DNA of 27,735 nt from Myxococcota bacterium (GTDB lineage: Bacteria > Myxococcota > JACRCW01), in contig JBFMGU010000141.1 in NCBI GenBank assembly GCA_040752415.1, forward strand, positions 1-27,735, written 5' to 3'. The position numbers were made by a program, and so were the translations under genes. This document shows, piece by piece, positions 1-18,904 of the stretch (the first letter of the stretch is position 1; each line of letters starts with the position of its first letter). The notes beneath the pieces were generated by a model. The model saw nothing but the letters and a program-made list of their open reading frames with translations. It was not told where the DNA came from and ran no database searches.

Positions 1-141
1 CCCATCCCCATCCCAATCAATCCCGGGAGTCCGCGGGCGAGGACGCGGTTCCACGTAGCGTCCACGACCGTGACATCGAGTGGCATCACCCACCCACGGT
101 CCAACGCGGCCCTCCGGGAGGGGGAGGGGGAGGGGGAGGGG
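1..141. repeat. Hexamer-unit imperfect inverted repeat: (CCCATC)n at the window edge and (GGGGGA)n at 116-141, downstream of ssb
   Basis: cccatccccatcccaatc at 1-18 and GGGAGGGGGAGGGGGAGGGGGAGGGG at 116-141. The left arm is probably cut by the window edge. Confidence 0.5.
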
Positions 142-246
142 AAAAGGCAGCACTGACGGCGGACCCCGGGGCGCCACGCTCGGGCAATGGAAAAGCGGTG
201 AGCCCGACAGCGCGAGCCCACCGCCCGAATCACGCTTGCCTCGACG

Positions 247-669
247 TCAGAACGGGATGTCCATCATCTGCGCGTCCTTGGCCGCTTCCGCGTCGCCGTC
301 GAACGGCTTGGCCATGCCCACGCCCGGCGCATCCGGGGCCCGACCCAGGAACAACACCTGGCTCGCAATCACCTCGGTGGTGGTGCGCTTGTTGTTGTCC
401 TTGTCCTTCCACTCGCGCGTCTGCAGGCGGCCCTCGGCGTAGATCTGACGGCCCTTCTGCAGGTACTGCCCCACCTGCTCGGCCATCTTCCCAAAACACA
501 CCAGGTTGACCCACTCGGTGCGGTCTCCCCAGTTGCCGTCCTTGTCCTTGGCGCGCTCCGTACAGGCCACGCGCATGTTCGCCACCGCCGTCCCGCCCTG
601 GGTCACCCGCACCTCGGGGTCATTGCCCAGGTTGCCAATCAACTGCACCTTCACAAGACCTGCTGCCAT
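247..669 (-). CDS. ssb: Single-stranded DNA-binding protein
   Basis: OB-fold SSB motifs KVQLIGNLGNDPEVR, TEWVNLVCFGKMAE and YLQKGRQIYAEGRLQTREW, plus a C-terminal DIPF tip. Confidence 0.97.
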   Translation of the reverse strand: MAAGLVKVQLIGNLGNDPEVRVTQGGTAVANMRVACTERAKDKDGNWGDRTEWVNLVCFGKMAEQVGQYLQKGRQIYAEGRLQTREWKDKDNNKRTTTEVIASQVLFLGRAPDAPGVGMAKPFDGDAEAAKDAQMMDIPF

Positions 670-874
670 CGCTCACTCCGTATCACTGGCCGGCGACACC
701 GCCGGACCCTCCGTTGCTGCCTTCACCTGGCATGCGCCGCGGTGGGCCGCAACGGCATCCGCCCCGGAATGCGGCGCGGTTGACGACGTGGGCGACGGCA
801 CAGGCGTGAGGGCGGGCTTGGGCGTGGCCAGGAACTCGCGGCGCGCCGGCGGGCTTGGGTAGCATGCCGGACGC

Positions 875-1801
875 GTGGTGAACTCTTCTTCGCCTGGTCG
901 TGCCGTCGTTGCGCTCGCGCGGGTTGCGGTGGTGCTCGGCGGTCTCGTCGTGGGGCTGCTGCCGGCGCGTGCGTCCGCGGCGCCCTCGCTGGCGGTGTTG
1001 GAGCTGGGAGCGGACGGTCGCGACCAGCCCATGGCGGAGCTGGTGACGCAGGACCTGGTGGCGCAGGCGCGCAAGCTGGGGCTCTTCGAGAAGGTGCTGA
1101 GCCCGCAGGACATCACGCTGCGCCTGGGCGACACGCAACACCAACAGCTCACCCGCTGCGCCGCCGACCGCTGCACCCTCGTCGACGAGGAGCTGACCGC
1201 CATGCTCGGGGTGACGCACCTCGTGGTGGGGAACCTGTGGGTCACCGACGGCGTGTACTCGGTGAGCGCGCGGCTGCTGGAGCTCCGTCGCGCCCTGGAG
1301 GTGTCCAGCGCCTCGGCGCACCGCGTGGGACTGGACCCCGCCGCAGTTTCCGAGCTCACCCGGCCCATGCTCGCCGAGCTCATCACCCGCGCGGAGCTGC
1401 TCAAGGACGCTTCACCCGCCTCGCGCGCGGCGGTGCTGGGGTTGACCGCGCCGGTGCGCAAGGCGTCAGGGAAGGGTGGCGGCGGGCTCTCGCGCGTGGT
1501 GGGTGGGATTGGTGCGGGCGTGGGGGTGTTGGGCGTGGTGGGCGCGCTGGCCATGGTGGCCGGGATGGTGGCGGCGCTCGGGCTCTGGGCGCCCATTGTT
1601 CCCAACTTCCTGATCGCCTTCGGTGGCGACGCACCGCTGCTGGTCAAGAGCGGCACCTCCACCTACCGGTTCCTCCTGCTGGGCGGCTTGGGCCTGGGCG
1701 CGGCGGCGGGCGTGGGTATCATCCCGTGCCTGGTGCTGGTGCTTGCCGGTGCGGTGTGGGCCGGGTTGGGATTCGCGCTGGGTCGGGGAGGTGGTGAGTG
1801 A
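875..1801 (+). CDS. Exported/membrane protein with an N-terminal TolB-N/CsgG/FlgO-like alpha/beta domain and C-terminal Gly-rich hydrophobic helices
   Basis: Signal peptide ending ARASA-A; LAVLEL...CAADRC...LGVTHLVVGNL...YSVSARLL pattern; hydrophobic C-terminus; the stop overlaps the next ATG (TGATG). Start uncertain. Confidence 0.7.
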   Translation: MVNSSSPGRAVVALARVAVVLGGLVVGLLPARASAAPSLAVLELGADGRDQPMAELVTQDLVAQARKLGLFEKVLSPQDITLRLGDTQHQQLTRCAADRCTLVDEELTAMLGVTHLVVGNLWVTDGVYSVSARLLELRRALEVSSASAHRVGLDPAAVSELTRPMLAELITRAELLKDASPASRAAVLGLTAPVRKASGKGGGGLSRVVGGIGAGVGVLGVVGALAMVAGMVAALGLWAPIVPNFLIAFGGDAPLLVKSGTSTYRFLLLGGLGLGAAAGVGIIPCLVLVLAGAVWAGLGFALGRGGGE

Positions 1802-3879
1802 TGCACAGAGCCTGGTCCGGTCGCGTTGTGGCGCTGTGCACGCTGTGTGCCGCGCTGGGCTGTGAGCGCATCCTGGAAGGCGCCTGCAACTCCGACGACG
1901 ACTGCGGCGCCGGCTACCGCTGCAACGCCGAGGGCTACTGCGAGGTACCCGCCTCCACCGTCGAGGATGGCGGGGTCCTCCAGGCCAACGGCAGCAGCAG
2001 CTCCGCTTCGTCGCACACCAGCGGGTCCTCCTCCTCGTCGTCATCCGGGGGCACCACCTCCTCCTCGTCCGGCGGCGAGGCTTCCAGCACCAGCACGGGC
2101 GGAACCTCGGCGTCCTCCACCAGCACGGCGTCGTCATCCACGGCAACGAGCACGGGCGGAGCAAGCTCGTCCGGCGCCTCGGTTTCGTCGAGCACGGCCG
2201 CTTCGTCGTCGGGGGATGTCACGACGTCGTCGAGCAGTGGGGCCGCCAGCTCCACCAGCTCCGCGACCTCCTCCGCGGTGGCGTCGTCGTCATCCGCTTC
2301 TGCCGCGTCCTCGACGTCGTCCTCGTCCAGTTCTTCGTCCTCGTCCAGCTCATCGTCGTCGAGCTCGTCGTCATCCAGCTCATCATCGTCGTCGTCCTCC
2401 TCCAGCTCGTCGTCCAGCTCATCCTCGTCCTCCAGCAGCGGGGCGCCGGCTGTCACGTTGCACGTCGAGATGGTGGGGACCGGGACGGGCACGGTGTCGG
2501 TGTCCCCCCTCGGGCAGGAGTGCGCCGTGACCTGCGACCTCCAGGTGCCACAGGGCACGGGGGTGACGTTGAACGCATCACCCGCCGGAAACAGCGCGCT
2601 GGAAGGCTGGCTGGCCGGGTGCGGCACCACCGGCGATCCCTGCACGCTGACCGTCGACGCCAACCACTCCGTGACCGTGGGCTTCTACCTGAAGAACTGG
2701 CTGGTCCCGCTGGGCACCGCCTCCACGGAAGATCCGGTCCAGATTGCCGTCGACGACAATGCGGGTGCCATCTACGTGGTGGGCTCCACCTACGGCGCGC
2801 CCGCGAACGAGACGCCCTCCTTGGGGAGTGACATCTTCCTGGCCAAGCTGGACCGCGTGGAGCGTCTCCTGTGGTTCAAGCGCATCATCTTGACTGGCGA
2901 CCAGCGCGCCACCGGTGTGGCGGTGGGCCCCGAGGGGCAGATCTACGTCACCGGCTATTCCCCCGGCGGTGACTACGCCGCCCAGCTTGCCCGCTTCGAG
3001 GCGGATGGGACGGAAACCTGGGTGGAATCCGTGGTGCAGCCCAACAGCTACTTGCGGGCCAAGGGTGTTGGCGTGCTCAGCAACGGCGAGATCGTGATGG
3101 CCGGCGAGGGTGACGCGAACCTCGAGGGGTGTCTCTACGGGACCAGCCAGCGCGTGCTGGTGAAGGTCTTCAACCCCCAGACCCGTGCCGTGACGCGGGA
3201 GAAGTGCGTGCAGGGAACCACCGCGCAGTATGTCTTCGGCGTCAACGTGGTGGCCGACAAGATCCTCGTGTCCGGATACACCCAGGGAAGCGTGGTGGGC
3301 AGTGTGGGCAACTTCCAGGGGTACGCGGATGCACTCCTGGTGCGCCTGGACTCCCAGCTCAACACCACGCGGGCGGTGATCCACAGCGAGCCCGTCTATG
3401 GCGCGGACGTGTTTCACGGCGCCACCGAGGATGGGTCTGGCAACCTGTACGCGGTGGGCACGGTGGTGGTGCCGGATGGGCAGGAGTACCGTGATGCCTT
3501 TGCGGTGGTGAAGTTCAGCAGTGCGGGAGCCGTGCTGGGACGTTATGCGCTTCCCTCCGGCACCGGCGGGCCGCAGGGGCGGAGCGTGGGCATCACCAGC
3601 ACGGGACGAATCCTGGCCTCCGGGACCGCCAGCAGCGTCAACGGCATGGCGGGGCAGTTCCAGGACGTGGTGCTGCTGAGCCTGGCATCCGACCTGACCG
3701 ACCCGCAGTTCGTGGTGTTCGACTCCACCAGCGTGGACCAGCCCGGCGCCATGGCGCTGTCCAGTGACGACGAGGTGTTCATCCTGGGCACGTTCCACTC
3801 CTCCGTGGAGGGCTTCTCCACCCTGGGACAGAACGACGCCTACGTGATCCGCTACACCGCCGACCTCCAGCGACGCTGA
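1801..3879 (+). CDS. Surface lipoprotein: Cys-rich motif, Ser-rich linker, divergent InlB B-repeat-like domain and SBBP-type beta-propeller
   Basis: Lipobox AALG-C; CNSDDDCGAGYRCNAEGYC; about 150-aa Ser/Thr/Gly linker; GTGTGTVSVSP..C...C...VTLNASP....GW..GC...CTLTVDAN.SVTVGF; repeats such as IAVDDNAGAIYVVGST and VAVGPEGQIYVTGYS. ATG 1801 is preferred to GTG 1798. Confidence 0.85.
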   Translation: MHRAWSGRVVALCTLCAALGCERILEGACNSDDDCGAGYRCNAEGYCEVPASTVEDGGVLQANGSSSSASSHTSGSSSSSSSGGTTSSSSGGEASSTSTGGTSASSTSTASSSTATSTGGASSSGASVSSSTAASSSGDVTTSSSSGAASSTSSATSSAVASSSSASAASSTSSSSSSSSSSSSSSSSSSSSSSSSSSSSSSSSSSSSSSSSSGAPAVTLHVEMVGTGTGTVSVSPLGQECAVTCDLQVPQGTGVTLNASPAGNSALEGWLAGCGTTGDPCTLTVDANHSVTVGFYLKNWLVPLGTASTEDPVQIAVDDNAGAIYVVGSTYGAPANETPSLGSDIFLAKLDRVERLLWFKRIILTGDQRATGVAVGPEGQIYVTGYSPGGDYAAQLARFEADGTETWVESVVQPNSYLRAKGVGVLSNGEIVMAGEGDANLEGCLYGTSQRVLVKVFNPQTRAVTREKCVQGTTAQYVFGVNVVADKILVSGYTQGSVVGSVGNFQGYADALLVRLDSQLNTTRAVIHSEPVYGADVFHGATEDGSGNLYAVGTVVVPDGQEYRDAFAVVKFSSAGAVLGRYALPSGTGGPQGRSVGITSTGRILASGTASSVNGMAGQFQDVVLLSLASDLTDPQFVVFDSTSVDQPGAMALSSDDEVFILGTFHSSVEGFSTLGQNDAYVIRYTADLQRR
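2317..2439 (+). repeat. 41 consecutive serine codons within the lipoprotein linker
   Basis: Counted directly in frame; all six Ser codons (TCG, TCC, TCA, TCT, AGC, AGT) are used. Confidence 0.95.
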
Positions 3880-15310: not shown

Positions 15311-16438
15311 TCACGCGCCCTTGTAGCTGAGCAGCGGTGTGAGCCTGCGTTCCACCGCCACCAGCTCCGCCTGCGCCCGCATCACCGCGCGCACGTCCTT
15401 GTAGGCCTCCGGCGCCTCATCCCTGAGCTGTTCCGCCAGGCGCCCGTCAAAGAAGACCCCTTCCATCTGACGCAACAGCTTCCGCGCGCTCACCCGTCGA
15501 CGCGCCTCGCTCCGGCTCAACCTGCGTCCGGCGCCGTGGGCACTGCTGCACAACGCCCGCGCACAGCCGCGTCCGCGCACGTGGTGGCTCACGCTCCCCA
15601 TGGAACCGGGGACGATGCCGCGCTCGCCCTCGGCGGCGGGGATCGCGCCCTTGCGGTGCACCAGCAGGTCCCGTCCCTCGTGCTCTTCGAGGCGGACGTG
15701 GTTGTGGCCGCATTGGAACAGCGTGTCCTCGTCGATGTCCACGCGGAAGAGCGCGCGCATCAGCTCCGCCACCTGCAGCGCCATGGCTCGGCGACTCTCC
15801 TCGGCGAAGCGCAGGGCCCACGCGAGATCAGCCAGGTAGGCGGCACCGGTGACGTCGTGGAGCTCCAAGGCGTGCAGGGGTCCGGAGTGGACGGTGGCCT
15901 GCTGCAGGTGATGGGCGCGGATGGCGGGACCGAGGGCACGGGAACCGCTGTGAACCATGAGCCACAGCGCATCCTGCTCGTCGGACTGCAGCTCCAGGAA
16001 GTGGTTTCCCCGCCCCAGCGTGGCGAACTCCCGCGTGCCCTCCCAGCGCTTCATGCGCTCAAGGCGCGGATGGCTGAGCTCCTGGTCGACGAGGCCGCGC
16101 GGCAGCTCACGGGGACCCGGGTGCATCAGCGCCGGAATGGTCTCCGAGAGATGGTGCAGCAGGGTGGCGGCGCGACGCGGGTGGCGGAGGAGGTCCGCCC
16201 CGACGTCAAACCGCACCGCCAACATGCCGCAGCCAATGTCCCCGCCCACCGCCTGCGGGTAGAGGAGATGCGTGGTGGCCAGCACCGTGCCCACGCACAC
16301 GTCCTCCGCCAGGTGCACGTCTGGCATCACCGCCACCTGCACCACGTCGTCGGCGCGACGCAGGCGCTCCAGCGCGCGCTGCACGTCCTCCGGGAGCGGC
16401 GCGGTGAGCCAGCAGTGCATGGGTGCTGTGGCGCTCAT
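15311..16438 (-). CDS. rtcB: RtcB-family RNA ligase (3'-phosphate/2',3'-cyclic phosphate to 5'-OH)
   Basis: All hallmark motifs are present: MPDVH, GGDIGCG, TLGRGNHF, VHSGSR, HNH, HRKGA, PGSMG, SSAHGAGR (guanylylated His), DEAPEAYK and terminal YKG. RBS GAGGAGG. Confidence 0.95.
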   Translation of the reverse strand: MSATAPMHCWLTAPLPEDVQRALERLRRADDVVQVAVMPDVHLAEDVCVGTVLATTHLLYPQAVGGDIGCGMLAVRFDVGADLLRHPRRAATLLHHLSETIPALMHPGPRELPRGLVDQELSHPRLERMKRWEGTREFATLGRGNHFLELQSDEQDALWLMVHSGSRALGPAIRAHHLQQATVHSGPLHALELHDVTGAAYLADLAWALRFAEESRRAMALQVAELMRALFRVDIDEDTLFQCGHNHVRLEEHEGRDLLVHRKGAIPAAEGERGIVPGSMGSVSHHVRGRGCARALCSSAHGAGRRLSRSEARRRVSARKLLRQMEGVFFDGRLAEQLRDEAPEAYKDVRAVMRAQAELVAVERRLTPLLSYKGA

Positions 16439-16854
16439 GGTTCCTCCTCGAGGTCCAGCGGCGCGGGGCCGGGCGGGACCACGGTGAAGGTGAGCTCGGG
16501 AACCCGCTTGCGGTGCAGGCTGGTGGCGAGCACGTGTCGCAAGGGTCCCCGGATGCGCTCCAACGCCGCGCGGACCGCGTCGACGTCGACGTGGGAAGGG
16601 GCCGCAAGGACCAGCTCCAGGCGTGAAGCGTCGGGAGCGGGATGGGTGTGGAGGACCATCACGTCCTGCAGCACCTCCTCGCGCACTTCCCCGGCGAGGA
16701 ACAGTGCGCTCAAACGCTGGACCTCGTCGCAGAGCTGACGGAGCTTGCGCTCCCGCGCGCGGTCCGCGGAATGGGAAAAGAAATCCGCATCCACCTCGAC
16801 GAGGTGGTCGGTGATACGCCGCGAACGACGCCGCGGCTCTCTGGGCATGCCCAT
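16435..16854 (-). CDS. RbfA-like protein (divergent ribosome-binding factor A paralogue)
   Basis: RKLRQLCDEVQR helix, VLQDVMVLHTHPAPDASRL, ALERIRGPLRHVLA and RKRVPELTF match the RbfA layout. The stop overlaps the rtcB ATG (ATGA). Start is 16854 or 16848. Confidence 0.8.
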   Translation of the reverse strand: MGMPREPRRRSRRITDHLVEVDADFFSHSADRARERKLRQLCDEVQRLSALFLAGEVREEVLQDVMVLHTHPAPDASRLELVLAAPSHVDVDAVRAALERIRGPLRHVLATSLHRKRVPELTFTVVPPGPAPLDLEEEP

Positions 16855-16863
16855 GGACAAACC

Positions 16864-16928
16864 CGCACCGGCCCGCCGCTTCAGGGCAGGAATCCGGGCG
16901 TGATGAAGAGGAGTTTTCCCTCGGGCGG
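16864..16928 (-). promoter_or_regulatory. Putative attenuator: alternative GC-rich hairpins between the leader ORF and the rbfA-like start
   Basis: On the - strand, CGCCCGG-ATT-CCTGCC-CTGAAGC-GGCGGG-CCGG-T-GCG (16900-16864) forms a stem ending 9 nt before ATG 16854. A second hairpin is GAGG-GAAAACT-CCTC (16922-16908). CGCCCG occurs twice, allowing alternative pairing. Confidence 0.45.
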
Positions 16929-16930
16929 AG

Positions 16931-16990
16931 TCAGCGCGTGACGCCGCGGACGAGGGCCGGGACAACGCGGAAGGTCAGAGTGGCACGCAT
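16931..16990 (-). CDS. Putative 19-aa leader peptide (MRATLTFRVVPALVRGVTR)
   Basis: ATG at 16990 is preceded by the purine-rich GGAGGAGAAAGGGA; TGA at 16933-16931 sits directly before the hairpins. Too short for the ORF track. Confidence 0.55.
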   Translation of the reverse strand: MRATLTFRVVPALVRGVTR

Positions 16991-17119
16991 GGTCCGGTCC
17001 CTTTCTCCTCCCGCTGGGCGTGGCTGGGGAGGGTGTGTGAGCGCGCTTGGACGCCGCGGGTGGGCCGCACATTCAACGCGGGTCCGGATCACACCACCGG
17101 GGTCCGCTAGGATCCGCGC

Positions 17120-17629
17120 GTGAGCTCCGGCGTCATGGTGGCGGTCGACGTGGACTACCGCGAGGACGAGGCGGTGGCCGCGGCGATCTTGTTCCGCTCC
17201 TGGACTGACGCTTCGTCCTGCGGCCAGCACGTGGCGCGCGTGGCCGGTGTTGCTCCCTATGTGCCGGGCGAGCTGTACCGTCGTGAGCTGCCGGCGCTGC
17301 TTGCGGTACTGGCAAAGGTCCCGGACGTGCTGAGTTGCGTCGTGGTGGACGGCTTCGTGTGGCTGGATGAGCAGGGCCGCAAGGGCCTGGGCGCCCATCT
17401 CCACGACGCCCTGGGCGGGGCGGTCCCCGTGGTGGGCGTGGCCAAGAGCGGGTTCCGGGGCAGCCGGCATGCCGTCCCCGTGTTGCGCGGTGGCAGCCGC
17501 CGTCCGCTGTGGATCACCGCCGTGGGAATCCCAGTCGACGCTGCCGCCGACGGCGTTGCGCGCATGCACGGGAATCACCGGATCCCCACGCTGTTGCAGG
17601 CCACCGATGCGTTGTGTCGTCGCGCGTGA
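17120..17629 (+). CDS. nfi: Endonuclease V family protein (short form)
   Basis: AVDVDY, PYVPGELYRRELP (PYIP wedge), VVVDG, GLGAHL, GVAKS and RIPTLL. Start is GTG 17120 or ATG 17135. Confidence 0.9.
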   Translation: MSSGVMVAVDVDYREDEAVAAAILFRSWTDASSCGQHVARVAGVAPYVPGELYRRELPALLAVLAKVPDVLSCVVVDGFVWLDEQGRKGLGAHLHDALGGAVPVVGVAKSGFRGSRHAVPVLRGGSRRPLWITAVGIPVDAAADGVARMHGNHRIPTLLQATDALCRRA

Positions 17630-17650
17630 AACAGCGCCGGTCTGGCGACG

Positions 17651-18904
17651 GTGGTAGGGTTCCGGCGTTCCGACGTGGGGGCGCGCATGGTCTGGGTGTT
17701 GGCGCTGTTGGGGGTGGTGGGGCTCTTTTTCCTCGACGTGCGCTACGTGCAAGCGTGGCAGACGGGTCTGGCCGCGCTGGCGGCGGATGGGCGCTTTGAC
17801 CTCGTGGTCCGGGAGTGCGAGCGCGGGCTGGCCTCCCGTCGTCCCTTCCTGCTCGTGCTCCGCCACTTCGTCATGCCGGGCGTCATGGAAACCGTCGCGG
17901 CGCTCTACTGCCACCAGGCCGGAGAGAACGAGCGCTCCCTGGAGCTGGCGACGGAGGCGGAGCGTCGTGCGCGACCGGGACCCCTGCGGAACGCGGCCAC
18001 ATCCACCCGCGCCATGGCGCAGTACGGTCTGGGGCGCCTGGCGGAGGCGCGCGCGGCGTTCGAGGAGCTGCATGCCCTTCCCGACGTGCAGGCCGGCCTG
18101 CTCTGCCCCGGCGCGCTGGTGGCTCTCTCGGAATGCCGTTTCGAGGACGCCATTGCGCTGTGCAGCGAGATCCTGGAACGGGAGCCCGCCGACGAGAGCG
18201 CCCACCTCCTCAAGTCCACCGCGCTGACGGCGCTGGGAAGATTCGGTGAGGCGTTCAAGGCGCTGGACTACGAGCCGCGAGGGTCCCGCGCGTTCTACGC
18301 GCCGCGCGATCTCAAGCTCATGGATTCCGACTCCGGGTCCATTGCACTGCTCAACGAGCAGGAGCGCGAGCGCGCCGGAATCGTCCGCCCCTCGCCGCTG
18401 CTGCAGTCCGCGGAGATCGCCTCGCTCTCGGGGGACTGGCAGGCGACGCGCGTGTACCTGGAGTGGTCGCGGGACCGCCTGGGACGGAATCCCACGATCC
18501 TGTTCAACTTCCACGTGTTGATGGCCCGTTGCCTGGCGCACGAGGGAGATGCGCGTGGTGCGGAGGCCCAGCTCCGTCTCGCCGACACCGCGGCGCTCTC
18601 GCTCCCGAAGAACCAGAGCCTGCAGTGGGAGCGTGAGGTTGCGCACGCGCGGGTCGCCCTCGAGCTTTCGCGGCTCGACGACGCGTTGGCCGCGCTCTCG
18701 CGCGCGGAGCCGCTCGCGCGTTCACCCGCGCAGCGACGATGGTCGGCATTCTGGACCGCGCGCAGCCTCGAGGCCGCACAGCGCTTCCCGGAGGCCATCA
18801 CCCGCTACCGCGCCTTGACCGAGGCCAACCTCGCCGACTGGCCCCACGCGGAAGCCCGCCAGGCCTTGGCGCGTCTTACGTCGATGACGTCGAGTGCGAG
18901 CTGA
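17651..18904 (+). CDS. Membrane-anchored tetratricopeptide-repeat protein
   Basis: N-terminal TM segment (MVWVLALLGVVGLFFL) and TPR-like units (AQYGLGRLAEARAAFE, ALTALGRFGEAFKAL, EAAQRFPEAITRY). Start may be ATG 17687. Confidence 0.75.
   Translation: MVGFRRSDVGARMVWVLALLGVVGLFFLDVRYVQAWQTGLAALAADGRFDLVVRECERGLASRRPFLLVLRHFVMPGVMETVAALYCHQAGENERSLELATEAERRARPGPLRNAATSTRAMAQYGLGRLAEARAAFEELHALPDVQAGLLCPGALVALSECRFEDAIALCSEILEREPADESAHLLKSTALTALGRFGEAFKALDYEPRGSRAFYAPRDLKLMDSDSGSIALLNEQERERAGIVRPSPLLQSAEIASLSGDWQATRVYLEWSRDRLGRNPTILFNFHVLMARCLAHEGDARGAEAQLRLADTAALSLPKNQSLQWEREVAHARVALELSRLDDALAALSRAEPLARSPAQRRWSAFWTARSLEAAQRFPEAITRYRALTEANLADWPHAEARQALARLTSMTSSAS

Follow-up and report, generated by a model that had tools for sequence, protein, structure and literature searches.

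The minus strand of the 27,735-nt stretch analysed here (the window; contig JBFMGU010000141.1 of a Myxococcota bacterium, assembly GCA_040752415.1) carries an operon of two genes, the first for a distant relative of the 30S maturation factor RbfA and the second for an RNA ligase of the RtcB family. The DNA in front of the operon contains a 19-codon open reading frame (ORF). From its conservation at related loci, this short upstream ORF (uORF) is almost certainly a conserved, translated leader, and we infer that it is translated in this organism as well. Together with the RNA around it, the uORF probably makes expression of the operon dependent on the status of the ribosome, with translation of the rbfA-like gene as the preferred point of control. 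RtcB ligases are the main RNA-repair enzymes of bacteria. To our knowledge, the control of their expression is known in only two cases, RtcR/sigma-54 and the leader peptide of Pseudomonas armZ.

The operon and its leader

The elements follow one another on the minus strand in the order purine-rich tract, 7-nt spacer, uORF, 76 nt of GC-rich leader, rbfA-like ATG (16854), and rtcB.

16998..17012, minus strand: purine-rich ribosome-binding region of the uORF (GGGAGGAGAAAGGGA), with AAGGGA at 16998..17003, 7 nt before the ATG
16931..16990, minus strand: leader ORF of 19 sense codons and TGA (MRATLTFRVVPALVRGVTR), with the ATG at 16990..16988 and the TGA at 16933..16931
16918..16956, minus strand: predicted stop-enclosing hairpin of the minimum-free-energy (MFE) fold, pairing the 3' third of the uORF (CCCUCG..GCGG) with CCGC.CGAGGG beyond the stop; the stop codon lies at the tip
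16907..16913, minus strand: CUCCUCU, a tract resembling an anti-Shine-Dalgarno sequence, predicted to pair with the GGAGGAG of the uORF (full leader) or with GAGGG at 16922..16918 (small hairpin)
16864..16900, minus strand: GC-rich stem-loop, present in the MFE fold, whose 3' arm overlaps the weak Shine-Dalgarno-like GUGCGGG of the rbfA-like gene
16435..16854, minus strand: rbfA-like gene, 139 aa; Pfam RBFA (PF02033) 25.2 bits, cut-off 34.7; N-terminus set by alignment A1
15311..16438, minus strand: rtcB, 375 aa, short form; Pfam RtcB E = 8.6e-76; its ATG overlaps the rbfA-like stop codon (ATGA)

An earlier note on this DNA had described the 19-codon ORF, the purine-rich site, the hairpins, the GC stem 16900..16864, which ends 9 nt before the rbfA-like ATG at 16854, and two copies of CGCCCG (16927..16922 and 16900..16895). 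All these coordinates are correct. A nuance concerns the ribosome site of the uORF: GGAGGAG (17011..17005) is present but lies 14 nt from the ATG, beyond the canonical Shine-Dalgarno distance. The nearer AAGGGA (17003..16998) is the plausible Shine-Dalgarno sequence and fits the layout given in that note. The small GAGG/CCTC hairpin, GAGG(G)/(U)CCUC in the RNA, forms only in a fold that omits the uORF, whereas folding of the full leader gives the CCCUCG..CGAGGG hairpin (16956..16918) instead. In the list of ORFs, the uORF makes up the C-terminal end of a 571-aa ORF that is spurious. Its peptide has four arginine codons and no histidine codon. A short ORF with its own ribosome-binding site, as an attenuator calls for, is thus present in the leader region and presumably lies within the operon transcript.

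The protein of the first gene scores 19.4 bits against the NCBIfam RbfA model (cut-off 142), and a profile of six orthologues matches solved RbfA structures with E = 4e-6 to 4e-3. The canonical rbfA of the same genome is on contig C66 (108 bits). Taken together, the sub-threshold Pfam score, the structure matches, and the presence of a canonical rbfA elsewhere in the genome indicate that the first gene is a divergent RbfA paralogue, a distant relative that we name RbfA-like only. The RtcB of the window falls below the cut-offs of NCBIfam NF007153 (180 vs 407 bits) and of TIGR03073, the family coupled to PrfH (144.1 vs 271.8 bits). By these scores it is a short form related to, yet outside, both curated short-form families. 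No prfH gene is adjacent, and the ORF beyond rtcB, on the opposite strand, has no Pfam match.

The genome has four RtcB genes: one on contig C102 beside an RtcR gene, a full-length copy on C118, a short form on C243 that has neither an rbfA-like gene nor a leader ORF, and the copy in the window. Next to the operon in the window there is no RtcR gene, and a -24/-12 promoter is missing from the operon's strand. A scan for the sigma-54 site TGGCAC-N5-TTGC, with up to two mismatches, gave 27 matches in the window vs 38.4 expected and none on the minus strand upstream of the operon, in agreement with the earlier note. The note had further proposed that the leader replaces control by sigma-54 and RtcR. 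This can hold for the present operon only, because the genome keeps an RtcR beside another RtcB, that of C102.

Conservation of the operon and of the short ORF

We searched 401 sampled genomes of the window's phylum with the rbfA-like protein and then with the six-sequence profile (A1). The profile has matches in 99 of them, and 30 loci, including the window, were retrieved for detailed comparison. Among these, rtcB directly follows the rbfA-like gene in the window, L012, L013, L015-L017, and L027-L040, and the rbfA-like gene stands without rtcB in L018-L026. In L014, an insertion sequence (294..1394, minus strand) encoding a DDE_3 transposase of 366 aa with helix-turn-helix domains lies between the two genes; it splits the operon and leaves the leader and the rbfA-like gene intact. 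A scan of metagenomes with the window RtcB gave 80 loci of 51-60% identity, on contigs from soil and peat, and the rbfA-like gene is directly upstream of RtcB in 73 of the 80. Six of the seven exceptions have less than 260 nt of upstream sequence. Judged by gene order, the rbfA-like/rtcB pair is a widespread conserved operon. A metagenome search with the single rbfA-like protein found no match, and a search of genome contigs found one irrelevant partial match. We found no description of the operon or its leader in the literature searched.

The start of the rbfA-like gene is not uniform. L015 has no in-frame ATG, GTG, or TTG near the expected start, only CTG. In essentially all loci of a large metagenome clade (within L041-L120; the MSPIA clade, after its leader peptide) the start is TTG or GTG (GGGAGC-TTTGTC-TTG-AAA or ..TTTG-GTG-AAA), not ATG.

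To be counted, a short ORF had to start with ATG, have 4-45 codons, follow a Shine-Dalgarno-like motif, and lie in the 310 nt before the rbfA-like match. Of 29 genome loci, among them the window, 27 have such a uORF, as do 58 of 60 metagenome loci. The probability of finding the combination by chance per 310 nt, estimated from the rest of the same loci on both strands, is 0.17 (genome) and 0.26 (metagenome), a background that consists mostly of coding DNA rather than of other intergenic leaders, so that the enrichment may be overstated. The earlier note had named a conserved short ORF in front of orthologous operons as a check, and the result is clearly positive. The two misses among the genomes (L018 and L025) have mini-ORFs that follow a Shine-Dalgarno sequence and begin with GTG. 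The related genomes are not independent, yet their uORFs fall into at least six unrelated peptide types.

MRAT/MRAA/MRAY: window, L013, L015, L022
MSVITHS / MCVSRHS / MSASHRT and similar: L012, L014, L016, L017, L019, L023, L024
MGRV..: 13 loci, family f11
MSPIA..: 53 metagenome loci
MR(L/I)..ILPL..: L054, L064, L084, L094
MRALI..: L061, L109

Similarity at the nucleotide level is confined to short blocks around the start of the uORF. The window, L013, L015, and L022 have ATGCGTGCC (Met-Arg-Ala) in common. The longer block GAAAGGG(G)ACCG.(A/T)C-ATGCGTGCC is common to the window and L013, the only other genus of the family, and ACCATGCGTGCCAC is common to the window and L015. The window-type (MRA..) leaders of five genomes can be aligned only at the Shine-Dalgarno sequence, ATG, CGT, and GCC and are otherwise too divergent.

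The 13 loci of family f11 (L028-L040) share an identical block of 31 nt (GCGCGGCGGGAGGTGTGCCATGGGACGTGTC) that spans the Shine-Dalgarno sequence, the ATG, and codons 2-4, and the uORF has 17 codons in 12 of the 13. The divergent neighbour gene differs among f11 subgroups; the block therefore belongs to the rbfA-like operon. A sigma-54-like TGGCAC on the opposite strand over the uORF start (16981..16995 in the window, two mismatches; also in the invariant f11 block) was considered as the cause of the conservation and rejected, because the window does not have the -12 GC, the motif does not occur in other clades, and the divergent neighbours differ among f11 subgroups that have the identical block. 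As a side observation, f11 has a second identical block of about 10 nt (CCCGCGCGTC) in the first rbfA-like codons, preceded by 8 nt that differ in at most two loci; otherwise the loci differ much. By sequence, parts of one block could pair with parts of the other (CGCG..GGGA with UCCC..CGCG), and the codons GGA and CGT look, by eye, unusual for GC-rich DNA.

The uORF is kept where rtcB is missing. Seven of the nine rbfA-like loci without rtcB have a mini-ORF of at most 20 codons led by a Shine-Dalgarno sequence; of the other two, L021 offers no more than an ORF of 40 codons overlapping the start of the rbfA-like gene, and the upstream sequence of L020 is limited to 12 nt. By its distribution, the leader tracks the rbfA-like gene, not rtcB. 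Separately, a histidine codon stands at uORF positions 4-6 in L012, L014, L015, L016, L018, L023, L024, and L025.

RNA structure in the relatives and in the window

In the MSPIA clade, 50 of 53 loci have a uORF of 17 codons, which gives 43 distinct sequences (alignment A2). The ATG is invariant in all of them. The stop codon is fixed in position and varies in identity (TAA 34, TAG 6, TGA 3), and codons 2 and 3 vary synonymously (Ser2 TCG 20, TCC 17, TCA 1; Pro3 CCT 19, CCG 16, CCC 8). In codons 8-16, third positions are nearly fixed and Leu/Pro, Leu/Ser, and Thr/Pro swaps are frequent, indicating a constraint at the RNA level on the 3' half of the uORF. Position 6 of the peptide is His in 23 sequences, Arg in 10, Gln in 5, and Asn in 3; position 7 is Arg, Ser, or Asn.

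The structure of A2 was obtained from RIBOSUM-scored alifold and is biased towards these sequences, as it was derived and counted on the same set. Of its cells 87.4% pair, compared with 27-38% when the partners are slid by 1-3 columns; default RNAalifold keeps only 6 pairs. The alignment has 54 double-change cells vs 22.6 in shuffles, and none of 500 shuffles reaches 54, although related sequences can beat column shuffles without any structure. A helix between the 5' untranslated region and the uORF (CUCRACG : CGUYGAG) has one pair that is GC in 19 sequences, AU in 15, and GU in 8. Codons 12-17 pair with the 40 nt after the stop in a stop-enclosing hairpin (92-94% paired). A local hairpin lies inside the 3' arm of the stop-enclosing hairpin (92% paired), and a GCGCGC..GCGCGC hairpin lies just upstream of the rbfA-like ribosome site (92% paired). 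Finally, the long-range helix GCUC(C/U)C : G(G/A)GAGC involves the Shine-Dalgarno sequence of the rbfA-like gene (90% paired), with one pair that is CG in 39 sequences, UA in 6, and UG in 1; independent covariation events are few, and the six UA pairs may represent one or two. The CUCCC/CUCUC tract that pairs with this Shine-Dalgarno sequence occupies the same position as CUCCUCU of the window. The local hairpin and the Shine-Dalgarno helix use the same nucleotides of the 3' arm of the stop-enclosing hairpin, so the three helices, each 90-94% paired, are mutually exclusive. Going by the alignment, the MSPIA leader has the ingredients of an attenuator. The covarying alternative stems that the earlier note had asked for are thus found in the MSPIA clade, whereas the leaders of the window's own type are too divergent to be aligned.

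Structure in the other clades is less uniform. Over 36 loci, a 78-nt segment around the stop has a mean folding z of -1.42 relative to shuffled sequences, with z below -1 in 21; the MSPIA and MRALI clades, L017, and L018 account for most of the signal. L012, L013, L014, L017, L018, and L024 are likewise predicted to have a stable hairpin just before the rbfA-like ribosome site. The GC stem of the window sits where the relatives have a hairpin followed by GGGAG-N7-start. In L012 and L014, uORF codons 3-5 (GUCAUCACA) can base-pair with the start region of the rbfA-like gene (UGUGAUGAC), and an early ribosome on the uORF is predicted to raise the accessibility of the rbfA-like site from 0.06-0.11 to 0.16-0.24 (up to 0.35 with L035). 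The model predicts no effect in L013, L017, and L024, and for a terminating ribosome it gives small decreases of 0.02-0.18 in six of six MSPIA-type leaders. We regard the footprint modelling across loci as weak evidence.

On the window alone, the feature does not go beyond chance; its significance comes only from conservation at other loci. The 78-nt segment around the window stop has z = -1.61, with 17 stop-crossing pairs vs 9.6 in shuffles. The proposal that the two CGCCCG copies compete for CGGGC is not supported, as it rests on GC matches of 5-6 bp that occur at chance frequency (CGCCCG, 9 in 3252 nt vs 10.7 expected). What can be shown for the window is the parts and alternative pairings that can be drawn between them, not a working switch. 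A consensus scan found no site resembling an intrinsic terminator in 16300..17700. No Rfam family matches the window leader (best E = 3.7), and in nine related loci Rfam gives only tRNAs and one chance miRNA match.

Candidate mechanism, alternatives, and known systems

The 160 nt before the operon would be an mRNA 5' leader that holds a translated regulatory mini-gene. Ribosomes would bind the purine-rich site and from there translate the uORF's 19 codons, and their position would set the fold of the leader. The 3' part of the uORF is predicted to pair with the sequence just past its stop codon. A ribosome that reaches the stop would melt this hairpin and free the downstream strand for other pairings; with a ribosome stalled early in the uORF, or with none, the hairpin would stay intact. 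Damaged ribosomes, cleaved or uncharged tRNAs, or inhibitors would, by impairing translation, raise expression of the rbfA-like gene, and that of rtcB with it through the ATGA overlap. The direction of the switch and the signal that it senses would follow, by analogy, the logic of armZ. A translational output is preferred for the window because no terminator was seen and because sequestration of the Shine-Dalgarno sequence covaries in the relatives.

Besides the make-up of the uORF background and the relatedness of the aligned sequences, several results weigh against this ribosome-dependent control. The 183-nt window leader folds with -75.7 kcal/mol, z = +0.61 vs dinucleotide shuffles, and the 101-nt part after the uORF has z = -0.30. 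The stop hairpin of the window is only modestly unusual, as 30 of 200 shuffles reach 17 stop-crossing pairs, and a stop-enclosing hairpin is absent from f11, L012/L014, and L022-L025. When ribosome footprints are masked in the thermodynamic model, a check proposed by the earlier note, the accessibility of the window's rbfA-like ribosome site stays at 0.36-0.37 in all four states. The leader peptides differ among clades (MRAT.., MSVITHS.., MGRV.., MSPIA..), and their homology cannot be shown. A scan for the sigma-70 promoter consensus upstream of the operon found none; with neither a promoter nor a terminator consensus, the start of transcription could in principle lie downstream of 16990.

The same leader peptide could instead act on transcription, full translation of the uORF permitting a terminator (GC stem 16900..16864 with GGUUUGU) or access of Rho, and stalling preventing it. 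The target of Rho would be the C-rich, G-poor tract after the uORF (ACUCCUCUUCAUCAC). The strong GC hairpin just before the rbfA-like gene fits this mechanism, as do C-rich, G-poor stretches after the uORF in many lineages (seen by eye, uncounted), and the model published for PA5471.1/armZ is, in the portions of the reports consulted, one of transcription attenuation (PMC13041342, PMC12057347). The scan for intrinsic terminators in 16300..17700 stands against it. After the GC stem, the U run amounts to no more than UUUGU and falls within a spacer between Shine-Dalgarno sequence and start that is kept in the relatives, and the covarying long-range helix of the MSPIA clade involves the rbfA-like Shine-Dalgarno sequence, which points to control of translation. 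A transcriptional output is the main rival and, on balance, rather unlikely.

The uORF and hairpins could also be constitutive and sense nothing, serving to load ribosomes or hold them at a standby site, or stabilising the 5' end so as to fix the expression level or protect the mRNA. The lack of a switch in the thermodynamic model of the window would suit such a role, and many lineages have a hairpin directly before the rbfA-like ribosome site, irrespective of the sequence of the uORF. Three exclusive MSPIA helices that are each 90-94% paired are hard to explain without alternation, and the position of the stop is kept while its identity changes. In addition, the closest relatives of the system respond to stalling, as far as the sections of the reports used here describe (PMC12057347, PMC13041342). 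A constitutive leader is accordingly unlikely.

It is very improbable that the product of the short ORF functions as a micro-protein, such as a partner for RtcB or for the RbfA-like protein. The residues of MSPIA codons 2-5 (Ser-Pro-Ile-Ala) are conserved while codons 2 and 3 change synonymously, but the peptides have 5-20 residues in most lineages (outliers 32 and 40), their sequences are unrelated among clades, and the MSPIA 3' half has the pattern of an RNA constraint (third positions nearly invariant, amino-acid swaps frequent). RbfA proteins bind structured 16S rRNA, and the leader accompanies the rbfA-like gene rather than rtcB, both of which would suit autogenous control as in ribosomal-protein operons, with the leader hairpins as binding site of the RbfA-like protein and the uORF secondary; in searches the leader resembled neither rRNA nor any Rfam family, and the conserved Shine-Dalgarno sequence, ATG, length, and stop position of the uORF would be left unexplained, which makes this reading equally remote. 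A model in which damaged ribosomes without an anti-Shine-Dalgarno sequence skip the uORF and read an rbfA-like gene that has no Shine-Dalgarno sequence was rejected as a general explanation, because most clades have a clear GGGAG Shine-Dalgarno sequence on the rbfA-like gene.

Ribosome-dependent control of an RtcB-family gene is not without precedent. The primary source for the PA5471.1/armZ leader is said to be Morita et al. 2009 (J Bacteriol 191:4966). Excerpts of two reports state that, in P. aeruginosa, ArmZ (PA5471) is an RtcB-like protein under the control of the leader peptide PA5471.1, and that its gene lies together with that of the release-factor homologue PA5470/prfH (PMC12057347, PMC13041342). 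In the model outlined there, complete translation of PA5471.1 lets a terminator form, and ribosome stalling is proposed to prevent termination (PMC12057347, PMC13041342). The causes of stalling named in the same excerpts are ribosome-targeting antibiotics, loss of SuhB, and loss of the CCA-adding enzyme (cca), the last through codons 3-4 (PMC12057347, PMC13041342).

This leader is the closest known system, and the rbfA-like leader is of the same kind, not a new category. As far as those excerpts go, both have a short leader ORF before an operon that combines an RtcB-family protein with one that acts, or in the window would act, on ribosomes, and both would have the order promoter, mini-ORF, alternative hairpins, operon. 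Both operons encode an RtcB-family protein, rtcB being the second gene in the window. In addition, three of five PrfH-coupled RtcB loci (TIGR03073 above cut-off) have mini-ORFs of 12-14 codons led by a Shine-Dalgarno sequence, 250-340 nt upstream. Among the RtcB matches in the PDB there was no ArmZ chain. The window differs in that its first gene is RbfA-like, prfH is not adjacent, and its RtcB is below the TIGR03073 cut-off. It has no detectable terminator, whereas in the relatives a covarying helix masks the Shine-Dalgarno sequence, and it has no connection to MexZ or efflux. The earlier note had suggested that stalled ribosomes switch on their own repair genes; armZ provides the precedent, but models and scans of the window gave neither a switch nor a terminator. 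What that note observed is real, and its interpretation is partly supported.

Classical ribosome-mediated attenuators act on transcription (trp type) or on translation (ermC/cat type). As in these, translation of the leader peptide would select among exclusive helices, and in models of the MSPIA clade and L012/L014 a helix masks the downstream ribosome site. Unlike them, the window leader has no run of codons for the same amino acid and no cognate resistance gene follows; the genes controlled here are for RNA and ribosome repair, and the geometry of the switch varies by clade. RtcR/sigma-54, which controls rtcBA of the E. coli type in response to RNA damage, likewise governs an RtcB gene, and the same genome has an RtcR-RtcB pair on C102. 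The operon in the window has neither an adjacent RtcR nor a -24/-12 promoter, and its control would be in cis, by the leader.

In combining a short-form RtcB with a small protein that binds, or here would bind, ribosomes, the operon itself, as distinct from the leader, resembles RtcB2-PrfH, with the RbfA-like protein in place of a release-factor homologue. The available parts of three reports describe RtcB2-PrfH, of E. coli ATCC 25922, as repairing 16S rRNA that colicin E3 has cut (PMC9304027, PMC9223846, PMC13166195). This makes a role directed at the 30S subunit plausible by analogy, and RbfA-like/RtcB may be a second repair module for that subunit, alongside RtcB2-PrfH. More tentatively, the leader and the operon could form a sensor of translation integrity used across phyla, in which the RbfA-like protein docks RtcB on damaged small subunits and the uORF reports damage to ribosomes or to particular tRNAs; drawn by analogy with RtcB2-PrfH, this is improbable as a whole. 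The tRNAs for His, Arg, Gln, and Asn, residues found at MSPIA positions 6-7 and, in the case of His, at positions 4-6 in several other clades, are targets of anticodon nucleases. If such a sensor exists, the repair operon would be made only when translation is sabotaged, with no need for a protein regulator.

A leader-peptide arrangement thus precedes a different and widespread RtcB operon, whose first gene is a divergent copy of a 30S maturation factor. Sensing of ribosome trouble in cis may be a general way to control RNA-repair genes, and the pairing points to a new ribosome-directed partner of RtcB. Dozens of natural leader variants, covarying helices included, are available for dissecting the switch in cultivable relatives.

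Two observations concern the surroundings of the operon. In the metagenome locus L049, the rbfA-like/rtcB operon and its leader are flanked on both sides (1..700 and 2970..3570) by tRNA arrays with 14 Rfam tRNA matches. These recall the long tRNA arrays of Anabaena, which are co-regulated with rtcB under translational stress in the part of the report consulted (PMC8421152). In the window, an endonuclease-V-like gene (17120..17629, plus strand, 169 aa; Pfam Endonuclease_5 E = 1.8e-12, profile positions 20-144 of 198) is divergent from the RNA-repair operon, and the 265-nt intergenic region is common to both.

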